Positions 4,976 through 63,317 of a stretch of DNA of 64,000 nt are shown one piece after another. Each line of letters begins with the position of its first letter. The first letter of the stretch is position 1. The DNA is from an uncultured Gammaproteobacteria bacterium (lineage in GTDB: Bacteria > Patescibacteriota > Patescibacteriia > UBA9570 > XYC2-FULL-38-9): NCBI GenBank assembly GCA_964344485.1, contig CAYFNF010000003.1, positions 148,467-212,466 of the forward strand, given 5' to 3'. The translations under genes were made by a program, and so were the position numbers. Under the pieces are notes generated by a model. That model worked only from the letters and a program-made list of their open reading frames with translations, was not told where the DNA came from and did no database searches.

Positions 4976-5893
4976 TTAATTTACCGTATAATCTGCGAAC
5001 TCGGGCTCTCGGATGAATTCAACATGAGCCAGGTTGCCGACTCCTGTTTCCTGGTCCTGACGAATCATGCGCTCTAGATGTGGAATAATGCTCTCTGGAT
5101 AAAAACGAATCGCGCTTAAACTATTTCTCAGCACATCGGATAAACGCACAGTTGCGTTTCCGGTCTCTTGAAAAGAAGGATCAATATGCTGGATTAATTG
5201 TTCGAGTAAACCGCGGAGGTGAGCCTCTGCTCGTCGCATGTTTTCCACTTCATCGTCTCGTAATTGTATTTTTCCACTATGTATCAATTCCATAATATGA
5301 CTGGAAAGAACACCGAATAGATGTGGATTCTCCATTTCAAGTTTATAGTAGCGATGAGATCCACCTTGTTCATCAGTAACCAAGAACTGTATTTCATCCA
5401 TAGGGTACTCTCTGACTCCTGCTTTGCTCATCAAGTTTGGCATTGCGAGAACACGATCCTGGTCCCCAATGCTTGCAGTGAGCTCTTTGACTAGTCGATC
5501 AATCTCAGGAGCAGAACGATCCAATACAGTTGTGCGGTCCCCAGAATACTCCGTGCCAGGTTGTTCTCGTTGAATGACAAGCTTTCGATCAAGCACCGCG
5601 TTGTTCACCGTACGCCCAACAAAGTAATCTACTTGTGTTCTATCCAACGTACGTAGTAAGCTCGTGCGGTTATAACGCTTTCCTAGTGTTGGTGTTCGTA
5701 GCTGATCATACGTACCTTGCGAGAACTCCCGTTGCGGTTCACGTGTGAGTAAATGCTGTAGGTATCGCTCGGAACGTTCGACTGTTTGTCCTTCTTTTAG
5801 TTTCTCTTCTCTCAACCGCGCAACAAAACCTGGATCATCGCGTAAGCGCGGATCTTGCCATCCTCCCCTTTGATATAACGGCCTACCTGGCAT
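4976..5893 (-). CDS. hypothetical protein (305 aa, no recognised domain)
   Basis: Long intact ORF with native-like composition; no motif identified by eye. Confidence 0.4.
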   Translation of the reverse strand: MPGRPLYQRGGWQDPRLRDDPGFVARLREEKLKEGQTVERSERYLQHLLTREPQREFSQGTYDQLRTPTLGKRYNRTSLLRTLDRTQVDYFVGRTVNNAVLDRKLVIQREQPGTEYSGDRTTVLDRSAPEIDRLVKELTASIGDQDRVLAMPNLMSKAGVREYPMDEIQFLVTDEQGGSHRYYKLEMENPHLFGVLSSHIMELIHSGKIQLRDDEVENMRRAEAHLRGLLEQLIQHIDPSFQETGNATVRLSDVLRNSLSAIRFYPESIIPHLERMIRQDQETGVGNLAHVEFIREPEFADYTVN

Positions 5894-46980: not shown

Positions 46981-47523
46981 TTATAACTTGAACATGCGGA
47001 TTGCAGTATCTCCGGCTGACTCCTCTTCTCTCTCAAGATCTTCATCGAGAAAATCCAGAAGCATCTTTCGTAAGGTGACTGGATTCTTGTCTCGCAGTGG
47101 AATCGAAAATTCTCCGCGTAGAATAGTATTTTTTGGTTTTATATAGAGCTGCTTAATTAACGGTGGTTCATAAATAACAGCAAATGACTCGATCTCACGA
47201 TAGATATAGAATCTATCACCAATCTGTACGCCGGTTTCATATATCACAAACGGTAGAATTGCAGGGTCGGAACGATGGTGTGTAAAAACAATCAACGCAA
47301 TGAGTAGAATGATTAGTGCAAACAAGAAATTACCATCTGCAATTGCATAGATCAGCAGACCACCTCCGATGAGGATGGCAAAGAAATACCAAATCGGTCC
47401 ACGTTCGTGTTTTTCATACTCTGGGAACTCCCATTGTTCTAGGACGCTTCCACGTTCAATGGGGTTTACCCCCATGCGAATGGACCGCTCTCGGTCTTCA
47501 TCTGTAAGGATTCTTTCTGGCAT
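46981..47523 (-). CDS. hypothetical membrane protein (2 TM)
   Basis: 180 aa with central hydrophobic hairpin; no motif. Confidence 0.4.
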   Translation of the reverse strand: MPERILTDEDRERSIRMGVNPIERGSVLEQWEFPEYEKHERGPIWYFFAILIGGGLLIYAIADGNFLFALIILLIALIVFTHHRSDPAILPFVIYETGVQIGDRFYIYREIESFAVIYEPPLIKQLYIKPKNTILRGEFSIPLRDKNPVTLRKMLLDFLDEDLEREEESAGDTAIRMFKL

Positions 47524-47594
47524 ACATACGTATTATAGCATTTTTTTTATCGAATGAAAAGGGGATATTTCAACTGTTTTTTACTAGATTTTTA

Positions 47595-47622
47595 TTGACT
47601 TTTTTAAAAAAATCGTTATAGT
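47595..47622 (+). promoter_or_regulatory. sigma-70-like promoter for tRNA cluster (TTGACT, 16 bp, TATAGT)
   Basis: Located about 30 nt upstream of first tRNA-like element. Confidence 0.4.
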
Positions 47623-47654
47623 TAGTAGCGCACGTTTCAGTTTGAGTGATATAT

Positions 47655-47784
47655 GGAGAGGTAGCTGAGTGGGTTCGAGCGGGCAATAAGTGAATGCATT
47701 TCTGCATTCACGGCCGCGAGAACGGGCGAACGATGCTGCAAAGCAGCCGTGAGTCCCGGATGAAAGCGATGAAATACCTCTCTT
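47655..47784 (+). ncRNA. unclassified about 130-nt tRNA-like element (type-II tRNA acceptor + D-arm, no canonical anticodon/T arms)
   Basis: Begins GGAGAGGTAGCTGAGTGGGTTCGAGC (near-identical to 5' end of adjacent tRNA-Ser genes) and ends CCTCTCT, but interior has a perfect 9-bp hairpin GTGAATGCA-TTTC-TGCATTCAC and a GCTGC-AAA-GCAGC hairpin instead of anticodon and T arms. Confidence 0.3.
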
Positions 47785-47811
47785 GGCTTCATTTCAATAT
47801 AGTTCTAACTT

Positions 47812-47903
47812 GGAGAGGTGGCTGAGTGGTTGAAAGCGACGGATTGCTAATCCGTTATATCGGTATTTAGCCGGTATCGAGGGTTCAAATCCCTCCCTCT
47901 CCG
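47812..47903 (+). tRNA. tRNA-Ser (anticodon GCT)
   Basis: Acceptor GGAGAGG/CCTCTCC, anticodon stem ACGGA/TCCGT loop TTGCTAA, long variable arm, T-loop TTCAAAT. Confidence 0.85.
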
Positions 47904-47927
47904 CAGGACCGATTTTTTTGTACGTCT

Positions 47928-48014
47928 GGAGAGATGACAGAGCGGTCGAATGTGACGGTCTTGAAAACCGTTGGGCCTTCACGGGTCCCGTGGGTTCGAA
48001 TCCCACTCTCTCCG
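47928..48014 (+). tRNA. tRNA-Ser (anticodon TGA)
   Basis: Acceptor GGAGAGA/TCTCTCC, anticodon stem ACGGT/ACCGT loop CTTGAAA, long variable arm, T-loop TTCGAAT. Confidence 0.85.
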
Positions 48015-48015
48015 C

Positions 48016-48399
48016 ATGACCATACCTTTTCTTATTTCTAACATAACAATTGTCCTCCTCTTTGTCGGACACTTGTACTATGGAGATAAAGAAATAAAAC
48101 GAATTGAACCAAGGGATTCATCTGTTAATCAAGGTCTTTGGACATTGGCACGAGTTGCATGGCACTGGGTATCTTGGGACTTATTGTTCATTGCGATACT
48201 CATGGCCTTAGTAAATTTTACAGGTGTTTTTTCAGGGAATGAAGCTATTGTACAAAAAATTATCGCGGTTTACATCATTGGAGTTTCCGTCTCTTGGACA
48301 ATCACCACTTGTATATCTCGGCCATGCGAGAAAAAATTCGTTATGTTTATTCCTGCTGCGCTGATTATTCTGAGTATAGGCATACTGGCTTTTTTCTAA
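48016..48399 (+). CDS. hypothetical membrane protein (127 aa, 4 TM)
   Basis: Start moved to MTIPF (48016) immediately after tRNA-Ser; hydrophobic throughout. Confidence 0.4.
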   Translation: MTIPFLISNITIVLLFVGHLYYGDKEIKRIEPRDSSVNQGLWTLARVAWHWVSWDLLFIAILMALVNFTGVFSGNEAIVQKIIAVYIIGVSVSWTITTCISRPCEKKFVMFIPAALIILSIGILAFF

Positions 48400-59094: not shown

Positions 59095-60081
59095 TTAATA
59101 TGAACAGCCGTGCCCGGTCCATTCGTAGTGCATGTAGTCTTTTACACTGCTCCAATCTCCGCCCCACATAAACCCTTCATTCTTAAACGCATTGATTAAC
59201 CAATCTGGATAGTCACAAGCGTCTGTTCCAGTAGTAGCGTTGTAGTTTGCACACATATCTGAGGAGAATTTCTCAGTGGTGTAACACGACATGGTTTTTT
59301 TACAGTTTGGATTGTTGCTCCAATTCACATCAATAGCAAAGCCGAATGAGTGATTACTGTAACACGAGGGATTGTTTACGTTTTGACGCCAGGCCCATGT
59401 TCCCGTATGACCAAATTCAATATCATATTGAGATGACGGGTGACCGTAATTATATGCAGCTATGGTTGCAAATGCATTTTCAAACGCGAGCTGTGCATCT
59501 TTATGGACTGCAAGTGTTTTTGCATGGTCGTCCACTCCATCATCAACCGTAATGCGCACTAAGTAATTTGTGTCCACGTAATCCTTATCAAATAAATTCT
59601 CATACTTTCCTGCTAGGCAGGTCTGCATACCACTTGTACAGTTGCTAGGATCACCATCTGCCATAAATGACAGTTCTGGTACGTCAATATCTCCATAGAT
59701 AGTAAATGTTGGACTGATCATATTAATGATAGTCCACGAAAGAAGTGCGATAACCAAACCGATCAGTGCATTCGTAATACGATCCTTCCCTTCGGATACT
59801 TTCTCTTTATTTCCAGCTGCTAGCGCCCATTGCGCACCACCAAAGATTATCATCCCTACTGCAACAATCGCGATACCGCTCACCAAGAACTGGTACATTG
59901 CAGCAAGATAGTTTGGCAGATACGGTTCAGTAATATTCTGCAGTACTCCAAGGCCAACTTCTAGTTTGATCACCGCCGCTGAGACTACCATAGGAAACGC
60001 TCCACAAAAAGCCATCACAGTCGTCAGTATTCTCCGCGGAGTGAAGCGAATTGATGATGTGTGTATTGTTTTTCGAGACAT
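59095..60081 (-). CDS. membrane protein: VirB2/TrbC-like signal + two-helix hairpin module fused to C-terminal M15-family peptidoglycan peptidase domain
   Basis: Shared N-module motif IKLEV.LG...Y..FL...IAIVAVGMIIFGGAQWALAAGN.EKV.E.K.RITNAL.GLVIALLSWTI; C-terminal HSFGFAID (HxxGxAxD), FMWGGDWSS, DYMHYEW zinc-peptidase M15 signatures. Confidence 0.6.
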   Translation of the reverse strand: MSRKTIHTSSIRFTPRRILTTVMAFCGAFPMVVSAAVIKLEVGLGVLQNITEPYLPNYLAAMYQFLVSGIAIVAVGMIIFGGAQWALAAGNKEKVSEGKDRITNALIGLVIALLSWTIINMISPTFTIYGDIDVPELSFMADGDPSNCTSGMQTCLAGKYENLFDKDYVDTNYLVRITVDDGVDDHAKTLAVHKDAQLAFENAFATIAAYNYGHPSSQYDIEFGHTGTWAWRQNVNNPSCYSNHSFGFAIDVNWSNNPNCKKTMSCYTTEKFSSDMCANYNATTGTDACDYPDWLINAFKNEGFMWGGDWSSVKDYMHYEWTGHGCSY

Positions 60082-62171: not shown

Positions 62172-63317
62172 TTATACACATTTATGTTGCGAGCCGTCCC
62201 AGGTAGTACCAGGCGTACAGTCGTCACATTTATCGTCCGTACATCCTCTTCCAGGTCCTTGACACTGATAATCTGCAGTACATTCATCTCCTGGACTGCC
62301 GTCGAAACACTCATTCGCCCACTCAAATGAACAGTACATGAGCGGACTATCTCCTCCGTAACAATCTGTGTCCCCGTCGCACGAATCTCCTTCTGCTTTT
62401 GGAGTACAGGAACTGCTCACACACTTAAATCCAGAAATACAATCACTTGAGTTTACGCACGGAAGACTATCTGACCCATCACCAGTAATACAGAAATTCT
62501 CTACTGTATTACATATTCCTGACTTACAGACACTATCTGATGTACAATACGCACCTTCAGAACGATTATTCTGAGTCAAGCACTTCTTTGACGGGTCTCC
62601 TTCACAGACAAACCCGGTTTCACAGTCTGCTTCGCTCGCACAGAGCGTTCCAGAGGTAGCAGTCGTACAAACCCCAGGTGCAGACGGACTCCCGCCAGCA
62701 CACGTCATGGGTTCTATACAATTTTCATCGCGTTGACATGCTGCGCCTTCACCGTTCGTATTTGTTCCGGTTGGACGACAGACCGTTAACCCCTCACCTA
62801 CATTCACACACTCACAGCCTCCCACACAGTAACTCACGCTCGTACACGCTGATTCTGCTCCACCTGGACATTCGGTCCAGTCAGAGGTAGTACCGTCACC
62901 CGAAGCCGTAAATTCAATCCCTGTTGGACAGATATTACCGAAAATCACCATTCCATCACTAATAATGCTCATTATGGTATAAGACAGCAAAGCGAGCACC
63001 AGCCCGAGCAGTGCATTAGTAATACGTGACTTAGCTTCGTTTACTTTCTCTGAATTACCTGCAGCAAGTGCCCACTGTGCTCCACCGAACATAATCATAC
63101 CCACTGCAACAACAGCAATTGCTTGAATTAAAAACGTATACACTGCGGTAATGTACTCACCTAAGCTAATTACTTGTTCGAGAGTGCCAACTTGCACTTC
63201 TAACTTAATTGGACTGGTAATACAATCCTCTGCAAACGCAGGGAAAGCAGCGATAAACAGCCCAGTCATGACTGCGGCGAGTAATGGTATTCTTTTGTAG
63301 AGATAATGTTGTTTCAT
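62172..63317 (-). CDS. membrane protein: paralogous VirB2/TrbC-like N-module fused to large Cys-rich extracellular domain (about 40 Cys)
   Basis: N-module about 55% identical to that of 59095..60081 (VVAVGMIMFGGAQWALAAGNSEKVNEAKSRITNALLGLVLALLSYTI); C-terminal G.C/C..C repeats. Confidence 0.55.
   Translation of the reverse strand: MKQHYLYKRIPLLAAVMTGLFIAAFPAFAEDCITSPIKLEVQVGTLEQVISLGEYITAVYTFLIQAIAVVAVGMIMFGGAQWALAAGNSEKVNEAKSRITNALLGLVLALLSYTIMSIISDGMVIFGNICPTGIEFTASGDGTTSDWTECPGGAESACTSVSYCVGGCECVNVGEGLTVCRPTGTNTNGEGAACQRDENCIEPMTCAGGSPSAPGVCTTATSGTLCASEADCETGFVCEGDPSKKCLTQNNRSEGAYCTSDSVCKSGICNTVENFCITGDGSDSLPCVNSSDCISGFKCVSSSCTPKAEGDSCDGDTDCYGGDSPLMYCSFEWANECFDGSPGDECTADYQCQGPGRGCTDDKCDDCTPGTTWDGSQHKCV

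Follow-up and report, generated by a model that had tools for sequence, protein, structure and literature searches.

Rickettsia palindromic elements (RPEs) are short, hairpin-forming sequences that are tolerated in frame within essential genes (PMC10969869), and the introns reported from tRNA genes of Patescibacteria are self-splicing group I ribozymes inserted at position 35/36 of otherwise complete tRNAs (PMC13011429). In the 64-kb window analyzed here (the whole 64,000-nt stretch of DNA, numbered from its first letter), a 130-nt element at positions 47,655-47,784 precedes two tRNA-Ser genes and contains an 88-nt insert with homologs in other genomes; the element and the tRNA genes lie on the plus strand. 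The best explanation overall, which we consider probable, is that the element represents a pseudogene of tRNA-Ser(GCU) into which a small, mobile-looking insertion element that forms hairpins has entered. In kind, it is an ordinary tRNA pseudogene plus a small insertion element and not a new type of tRNA.

The insert and its homologs share several properties with RPEs and MITEs, namely a length of about 70-150 bp, hairpin formation, a lack of coding capacity when alone, occurrence also in intergenic DNA, and presence/absence polymorphism among relatives. Insertion in frame with the reading frame kept, as seen in RPEs, was found here in a single copy, located in an ArgRS gene (L025). In contrast to RPEs and MITEs, the family lacks terminal inverted repeats and a target duplication that are clear, its copy number is very low where it could be counted (one in 64 kb), and it is spread over Patescibacteria, a Rickettsiales-like alphaproteobacterium, a bacterium of ~60% GC and phages. 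The likeness to RPEs concerns their described properties and not the consensus sequences of RPE-1 to RPE-10.

With the group I introns of Patescibacteria, the locus has in common the phylum and an inserted structured RNA that makes annotation tools miss the tRNA gene (PMC13011429). However, the insert is 88 nt long, shows no group I signature, has an incomplete host tRNA and is located in the D-loop, whereas the reported introns are found at 35/36 in the anticodon loop (PMC13011429). As in tRNA pseudogenes and decayed tandem duplicates, there are collinear remnants of a neighbouring gene, tRNA-Ser(GCU), and no anticodon, but the break is in this case a discrete foreign insert in the D-loop, and both the insert and the stem closing the element have diverged less between lineages than the neutral flanks. 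The element also resembles tRNA-like processed RNAs (mascRNA from MALAT1 and bacterial YrlA) in that an acceptor-like stem surrounds a non-tRNA body at a location where tRNA-processing enzymes act. Unlike these RNAs, it has no T arm beside the acceptor stem and no Rfam match, and the likeness appears to be inherited from a dead tRNA gene rather than to be mimicry.

The 130-nt element and its relation to tRNA-Ser(GCU)

The first 18 nt of the element (GGAGAGGTAGCTGAGTGG, 47,655-47,672) correspond to tRNA positions 1-18, i.e. the 5' acceptor strand, the 5' strand of the D-stem and the D-loop up to G18G19. They match the beginning of the intact tRNA-Ser(GCU) gene (47,812-47,829) at 17/18 nucleotides and that of tRNA-Ser(UGA) at 47,928 at just 13/18 (manual count), which agrees with the initial annotation in that a 5' acceptor is common to the element and the downstream tRNA-Ser genes. 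At the opposite end, the relic of the 3' acceptor strand (ACCTCTCT, 47,776-47,783) is complementary to the 5' end and is predicted to form with 47,655-47,663 a closing stem of 9 bp, including one G-U pair. The interior contains a perfect 9-bp hairpin (GTGAATGCA/TGCATTCAC, 47,690-47,711), a perfect 5-bp hairpin (GCTGC-AAA-GCAGC, 47,735-47,747) and the segment GATGAAAGCGATGAAAT (47,759-47,775); these features and the complementary 3' end had all been noted initially. The predicted fold of the 130-nt RNA has a minimum free energy of -54.7 kcal/mol, compared with -38.2 ± 3.5 kcal/mol for shuffled sequences (z = -4.69), and none of the 200 dinucleotide shuffles folded as well.

The tRNA sequence stops at 47,672 and resumes at 47,761 at the next tRNA position, with TGAAAGCGA (47,761-47,769) matching tRNA-Ser(GCU) at 9/9 nucleotides; the boundaries of the insert are therefore 47,673 and 47,760 (GTTCGAGC...GTCCCGGA), and its assignment to the insert family is based on the covariance models R1 and R2. 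TGAAAGCGA opens a pseudo-tRNA remainder (47,761-47,775; about 12/15 matches as a whole, by eye) that comprises the 3' half of the D-arm and the start of the anticodon stem. This decayed sequence is followed by a large deletion and then by the 3' acceptor strand. Altogether, the relic spans tRNA positions 1-18, about 20-33 and the 3' acceptor strand; it has no anticodon, and the anticodon, variable and T arms are absent in a collinear comparison with tRNA-Ser(GCU). Because these arms are deleted, no functional tRNA is left after removal of the insert.

ARAGORN identified five tRNAs in the window, none of them inside 47,655-47,784, and no tRNA was found in the element when an intron was allowed; a cloverleaf with anticodon and T arms was recovered there neither by ARAGORN nor with RF00005. 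With the insert removed, this element and its homologs from a related Patescibacterium (L008) and an unrelated bacterium (L017) were likewise not called tRNAs by ARAGORN. We therefore interpret them as tRNA pseudogenes with a discrete insertion after G18G19. The presence of remnants collinear with one specific neighbouring tRNA, together with the loss of essential arms, is what defines a tRNA pseudogene. Of the possibilities raised initially, a decayed duplicate fits these data, with both ends and the internal 9-nt piece collinear with the adjacent tRNA-Ser(GCU), while a tRNA with an unusual insertion is correct as far as the discrete 88-nt insertion is concerned, but not as regards the tRNA, given that the site is in the D-loop, the other arms are deleted and no workable tRNA remains after removal. 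A tRNA-derived regulatory RNA, also raised initially, is conceivable. The suggestion that the hairpins had taken the place of the anticodon and T arms was not borne out: the insert is in the D-loop after G19, and those arms are deleted. The apparent type-II D-arm turned out to be a hybrid, in which the 5' part is tRNA-derived, but the 3' half is GGGTTCGAGCG, with which members of the insert family invariably begin. This sequence starts the insert, imitates the D-loop and the 3' D-stem, and is also present in insert copies far from any tRNA.

The insert folds into two adjacent hairpins. H1 (47,673-47,723) has the foot GUUC-GA-GC(GG)/(CC)GC-GA-GAAC with tandem G.A pairs, above which an A-rich 5' bulge (AAUAA) is followed by the 9-bp apical hairpin at 47,690-47,711; both the foot and the apical part show covariation. 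H2 (47,724-47,757) consists of a GGGC/GUCC foot, an ACG/CGU stem and the 5-bp hairpin GCUGC-AAA-GCAGC at 47,735-47,747, with covarying stems and a conserved GGG/CCC foot. The relic is separated by a 27-nt spacer (47,785-47,811) from the intact tRNA-Ser(GCU) gene, its functional paralog (47,812-47,904; ARAGORN, Rfam score of 65.9 bits), and tRNA-Ser(UGA) (47,928-48,015; ARAGORN and Rfam) forms the third unit of the putative operon. The spacer contains TATAGTT (47,798-47,804), a second copy of the -10 block of the promoter (47,617-47,623), which suggests that the duplicated unit may have begun inside the -10 region of the promoter.

No known noncoding RNA family could be assigned to the element in the Rfam check proposed in the initial annotation: Rfam found tRNAs alone at gathering thresholds and nothing in the 130-nt element, and a separate search of 47,560-47,830 at E ≤ 10 gave no match in the element. 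SRP RNA, tmRNA, tRNA-Sec, 6S RNA and Y-RNA-like RNAs, as well as hammerhead, twister and HDV-like ribozymes, T-box, k-turn and box C/D motifs, were rejected on a poor fit by eye and the lack of any Rfam model at E ≤ 10. A small protein was discarded too: the 43-aa ORF at 47,694-47,825 overlaps the live tRNA, and its counterpart frame in L008 meets a stop (manual reading). A long target-site duplication or Campbell-type integration was superseded by the tandem tRNA duplicate with the insert in its first copy, and a guide-RNA reading (omega-RNA of IscB/TnpB, or a bridge RNA, with the neighbouring tRNA as 5' guide) was abandoned, as the tRNA resumes after the insert.

Orthologous loci, promoter and conservation

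The divergent gene upstream of the element (46,981-47,523) encodes a 180-aa membrane protein with no Pfam match. It has 43 homologs, of which the named ones carry the label Patescibacteria or, on a short MAG contig, Omnitrophica. The products of other genes in the window (a ClpC-like ATPase, a ComF-like PRTase, T4SS-pilin-like proteins and a Peptidase_M15_4 protein) are in keeping with Patescibacteria. Comparison of the DNA around eleven homologs of the 180-aa protein revealed no element in the examined sequence of L001, L002, L003, L004/L005, L010-L013, L014, L030 and L031. In most of the element-free loci, a tRNA-Ser gene follows the upstream gene directly, and a tRNA-Ser without insert was found beside it at nine loci (L001, L002, L003, L004, L005, L010, L014, L030 and L031). 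In this comparison with orthologous loci, called for at the outset, the layout of the element recurs in L008.

In this last locus, which is identical in sequence to L009 and L026 and comes from a related Patescibacterium, the same promoter is followed by a leader of 27 nt, an element of clear homology and tRNA-Ser(GCU). Its insert also measures 88 nt, the tRNA resumes after it with TTGAAAGC (8/8), and an apparent remnant of the anticodon arm follows (by eye). In the closest relative, L007, a possible carrier, the contig stops just past GGAGAGGTGCCTGAGTGGGTTGATTGCGA. A neighbour-joining tree of the upstream protein groups the window sequence with L007 and L008 in a single clade, which argues that the feature arose once, in the ancestor of this clade.

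The promoter-like sequence TTGACT-16 nt-TATAGT named in the initial annotation was found at 47,595-47,622. A promoter scan by itself was non-significant (2 sites versus 1.9 expected), but the block is conserved before tRNA-Ser in L008, L007, L001, L030 and L031, with 88% identity between the window and L008. No terminator-like site was detected in 47,300-48,300. The relic is likely to be transcribed because it lies between a conserved promoter and live tRNA genes with no terminator, and its co-transcription from TTGACT/TATAGT, as proposed initially, is plausible on these grounds.

The insert shows 78% identity between the window and L008, including uninterrupted matches of 13, 12, 10 and 16 nt, compared with 96% for the tRNA and with 54% for the leader and 45% for the spacer, values that are about noise level. 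A dead passenger would be expected to decay like the spacers, and the difference between 78% and 54%/45% goes against the best explanation. Three double-compensatory changes were seen by eye (G2-C to A-U in the closing stem, G-C to C-G in H1 and A-U to G-C in H2); the closing stem of L008 is kept through one double-compensatory change and G-C to G-U changes. In an alignment of three copies, 8 pairs are changed on both sides. The conservation of the insert and the compensated closing stem hint at selection on the RNA, and conservation within the clade may reflect either such selection or homogenization of the insert by unseen sister copies.

These observations are what recommends a domesticated small RNA, in which the acceptor stem would serve as a scaffold for processing and stability and the two-hairpin module would be selected for a host function, such as protein binding or action as a decoy in tRNA-Ser maturation; an origin by insertion is compatible with it. 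Besides the excess of identity over leader and spacer and the three compensated pairs, it draws on the position of the element directly after a conserved promoter with no terminator and on its having been retained from the common ancestor of a clade in which the neighbouring protein shows an identity of just 66%. On the other hand, sister lineages with the same promoter and tRNA manage without the element, the apical hairpin of H1 has decayed in its 3' half in L008, homologs lie in either orientation to the adjacent genes and also within an ORF (see below), and the blocks conserved specifically between the window and L008 have no antisense target above chance in the window. We regard such an RNA as unlikely, although worth keeping in mind. 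Similarly doubtful is a broader version, according to which the two-hairpin module is an undescribed structured element recognized by a conserved cellular or phage factor, which would have spread across phyla, landed preferentially after the GG of tRNA D-loops and been domesticated in the clade of the window, L007 and L008 as a stable small RNA that is closed by the acceptor stem and cut from the tRNA-Ser precursor.

The location between promoter and tRNAs is also what would be expected of a cis-regulatory leader of the tRNA-Ser operon, resembling an attenuator or riboswitch, in which the duplicated acceptor strand competes for pairing; indeed, the 3' strand ACCUCUCU has two potential partners, the 5' end of the element itself and that of the downstream tRNA. 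However, a terminator/antiterminator arrangement is absent, sister lineages having the same promoter lack the element, its core is also found in non-leader contexts and in antisense orientation, and the L017 relic has no closing stem. A regulatory leader is accordingly very improbable.

The insert family and its genomic contexts

Exact-pattern scans of collections of metagenomes, genomes and viruses, together with one peptide search, yielded further copies of the insert. They comprise an intergenic copy (L020), a copy inside the ArgRS gene of a MAG that is Rickettsiales-like by the names of its ArgRS relatives (L025), a second intergenic copy found by the peptide search via a spurious ORF (L027), two copies on one phage contig (L028a and L028b), a copy on another phage contig (L034), and the tRNA-linked copy L017. 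The family is sparse but widely distributed; its elements are 66-105 nt long and are built of the two adjacent hairpins H1 and H2. H1 follows one plan: a 4-bp foot, tandem G.A/A.G pairs, GC/GC, a 5' bulge of 3-6 nt that is A-rich in most copies, and an apical hairpin of 9-13 bp, the sequence of which varies among lineages. H2 comes directly after H1 and is closed by GGG/CCC. Every copy is immediately preceded by GG, and 6/9 copies end with CCCNGGA.

In an alignment of eight copies, 83% of the cells are paired, as opposed to 71% in shuffles and 33-47% when the partners are slid, and 12 pairs are changed on both sides; none of 500 shuffles attained this. A leave-out model built from the three tRNA-linked copies recognized L020, L025, L027 and L028a at 29-32 bits (E of ~5e-5 to 2e-4). 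Eight pattern-scan loci (L015, L016, L018, L019 and L021-L024) and those of the third viral scan other than L034 were rejected as false positives, as they are GC-rich, coding-looking sequences in which the structure is absent. A kinship of the tail of the window element to that of L020 and L027, in which GAAAGCGATGAAAT is alike and CGTGAGTC shared, was dismissed as coincidental, since the tRNA D-arm explains GAAAGCGATGAAAT better and at the exact expected position. None of the tested members (the window element, L020, L027 and L017) matched Rfam 15 apart from chance hits outside the element and real tRNAs, BLAST searches of phage and plasmid collections with the elements of the window, L027 and L020 were negative, and a literature search with core sequence strings returned irrelevant primer matches only.

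The insertion itself is best seen in ArgRS. The L025 ORF reads through the element in frame: 23 close relatives of this protein are free of it and read ...KGVGALPEGYDDQDQTLF..., and L025 reads ...KGSSVKKSALTADFSENGNEQSESQDIYGKNQTLF.... The DNA of a 92%-identical relative (L032) has AAGGGT-GTGGGGGCGC-TCCCAG where L025 has AAGGGT-TCGAGCG...GCGAA-TCCCAG, and this empty site indicates a discrete insertion in L025. The element is in sense orientation in the window, L008, L017 and L025. In the three phage copies, and apparently also in L027, it runs antisense to the genes on either side. Such variable orientation is easier to reconcile with insertion at the DNA level than with a single cis-acting RNA function common to the copies. 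Signs of multiple copies are the two copies on the L028 contig and the nearly identical H1 of L025 and L027 at different loci; the window holds a single copy in 64 kb, and a search with filters off revealed no second one.

As to the mechanism, genes for a transposase, a recombinase or a reverse transcriptase were not detected in the vicinity of any copy (ORFs were scanned around the window element, L017 and L028). Clear terminal inverted repeats are missing from the window element, L017 and the phage copies; ends resembling GGGTTYGAG/CTCRAACCC were noticed by eye in L020, L025 and L027. With GG before every copy and GG(A) at most 3' ends, a 2-bp duplication is possible but inseparable from the ends of the element. 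No unambiguous target-site duplication was detected, and the long direct repeats in the window and in L017 are duplicated tRNA. Members of the family most likely represent non-autonomous insertion elements similar to MITEs and RPEs. Palindrome-associated elements derived from IS200/IS605 and REP sequences may be similar in having strand-specific imperfect hairpins, in which tandem G.A would become C.U on the other strand, no evident target duplication (here with GG 5' of every copy), and, as in the three phage copies, a uniform orientation to the flanking operon. In contrast to them, no TnpA(Y1), RAYT or TnpB gene was detected near any copy, and the 5' GG is too short for a target motif.

A second tRNA gene was split in the same way, and independently, in L017, a metagenomic contig of ~60% GC from an unrelated bacterium. 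Positions 1-19 of tRNA-Pro(CGG) (19/19) are followed by a homologous insert of 103 nt, after which the tRNA continues with AGCGCGC (7/7; 13/18 over the next 18 nt) and a decayed remainder that precedes an intact tRNA-Pro. The fold of this relic has no closing stem, and its decayed tRNA body contains a second, inside-out duplex (GC-GA-GAA...UUC-GA-GC). The tandem pairing of an invaded with an intact tRNA copy was thus met with in two independent lineages, and the proposed model accounts for it only as survivorship. One explanation is indeed survivorship, a hit in a single-copy essential tRNA being lethal; the other is a mechanistic link between the tandem copy and insertion.

The inside-out duplex of L017 resembles a local event, and most retrieval patterns fixed 18-25 bases including the foot, so that the invariance of these blocks is partly built in. 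Both points speak for there being no mobile family at all, with hairpins generated in place through template switching or the formation of palindromes, and the foot that they share due to convergence or to an artefact of the search patterns. Against this, L027, L028b and L034 are less biased witnesses of the family: L027 was found via a peptide and shares 32/33 nt of the H1 apex with L025 at another locus, and the foot of L028b and L034 differs by compensatory pairs only, the outermost pair being G-C in most copies, C-G in L028b and A-U in L034. In addition, coding-looking sequences that match the same fixed pattern do not have the structure and score ≤9.4 bits (five tested with model R2) compared with 29-32 bits for members, and the L032 empty site shows a discrete insertion. 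Independent local origins are therefore highly unlikely. A functional tRNA-Ser whose intron, of group I or the archaeal bulge-helix-bulge type, is removed at the RNA level can practically be dismissed: although the fold of the insert brings its two ends together, the 3' exon is incomplete and the anticodon, variable and T arms are missing after removal (ARAGORN finds nothing), no Intron_gpI or other Rfam model matched at E ≤ 10, the insert is in the D-loop and, at 88 nt, too short for a group I intron, an intact tRNA-Ser(GCU) adjoins 27 nt downstream, and the ArgRS element is read through in frame and not removed.

Proposed history and significance

Under the preferred reading, a pseudogene hit by an insertion element, a spare copy of tRNA-Ser(GCU) would have arisen in tandem, 27 nt upstream of the live gene, and the 88-nt element would have entered the D-loop of this copy directly after G18G19. 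The insertion would have happened once in this lineage, in the common ancestor of the window sequence, L007 and L008, and the element could have been moved in trans by some enzyme, as a non-autonomous insertion of the MITE or RPE kind. The disabled copy would later have lost its anticodon, variable and T arms. The relic probably forms the first unit of the precursor transcript and is freed when the downstream tRNA is processed, and the released product would be a very stable RNA closed by the acceptor stem.

For annotation, these findings mean that the element should be counted neither as a tRNA nor as an intron-bearing tRNA. They reveal a very small hairpin element without an Rfam family, common to Patescibacteria, a Rickettsiales-like bacterium and phages, that split the D-loop of a tRNA twice, independently and at the same position, and that an essential aminoacyl-tRNA synthetase can accommodate in frame. 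Should the family be mobile, highly reduced genomes would have a new small passenger in it. If the conservation of the insert reflects function, a dead tRNA would have been reused as a scaffold for a structured RNA.

Copies on phage contigs and in an ArgRS loop

Three copies of the two-hairpin element lie on phage contigs, two of them on the plus strand of L028 (6841-6907 and 11755-11821) and one on the minus strand of L034 (6511-6576). All three were found within short intergenic gaps, antisense to co-oriented flanking genes, and one gene flanking an L028 copy encodes a Phage_Gp15 tail protein. Comparison of the two L028 copies revealed that the apex of the first hairpin (H1) is nearly identical (1 difference), while its foot differs by two compensatory pairs.

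The copy in L025 lies in frame in an ArgRS gene (125-1855) and occupies a surface loop of the encoded enzyme. In related ArgRS proteins, the sequence inserted at this loop is about 50 aa long and has NNDVTP repeats (P0049) or comprises 4 aa (P0047). This loop is an insertion hot spot.

Repeats and additional hairpins at the insertion loci

An imperfect 34-nt direct repeat, ATTTRGTGTCGG.GTRTCGGGATTTGACAYCTTT, is present on both sides of the intergenic copy in L020 (2108-2140 and 1895-1928, minus strand). The repeats are identical at 31 of 34 positions, with a score of 46 vs a null of 15.7 ± 2.1, and could reflect the duplication of either a promoter or a target. In L017, the insert-bearing tRNA-Pro pseudogene has, within its decayed 3' portion, a second hairpin, GCGAGAAAUGAA-CAGC-UUCAUUUCGAGC (5695-5722, minus strand). 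Its duplex, GC/GA/GAA...UUC/GA/GC, is as in the H1 foot, and its loop is at the opposite end, so that the hairpin appears 'inside-out'. It could have arisen by a partial second insertion or by a local palindrome-forming event.

In the window, TATAGTT occurs both in the -10 block of the promoter (47617-47623) and 7 nt 5' of the intact tRNA-Ser(GCU) (47798-47804), a repetition that may be left over from the tandem duplication by which the spare tRNA copy arose. At the corresponding locus of the window organism's closest relative, L007 (1-160, minus strand), the conserved promoter is followed by about 100 additional bases, which include an ACCCC...GGGGT hairpin, and then by a GGAGAGGTGCCTGAGTGGGTTGATTGCGA start, at which the contig stops. 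This start does not match a clean tRNA-Ser, and it does not match the canonical start of the insert either.

tRNA-Ser(ACU) in relatives

Besides tRNA-Ser(GCU), relatives of the window organism have a tRNA-Ser with the anticodon ACU, encoded on the minus strand of L010 (2255-2344; loop UUACUAA), L002 (2265-2356), L012 (1717-1806), and L013 (74-163). Bacterial A34 is normally restricted to tRNA-Arg(ACG), and a serine tRNA with A34 is unusual in bacteria.

Pilin-domain genes and a possible toxin-module fragment

Beside the intergenic copy in L027, the minus strand of 1-295 resembles by eye a fragment of a filamentous-haemagglutinin/CdiA-type repeat protein. No gene was called in 1-295 despite this reading, and the region may be an orphan toxin-module fragment.

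The window itself contains two genes with a T4SS_pilin domain on its minus strand (59095-60078 and 62172-63314), one of which also encodes a fused Peptidase_M15_4 domain. This pilin/M15 pair recurs near the homologous locus in L004/L005, and it looks like a conserved surface module of Patescibacteria.
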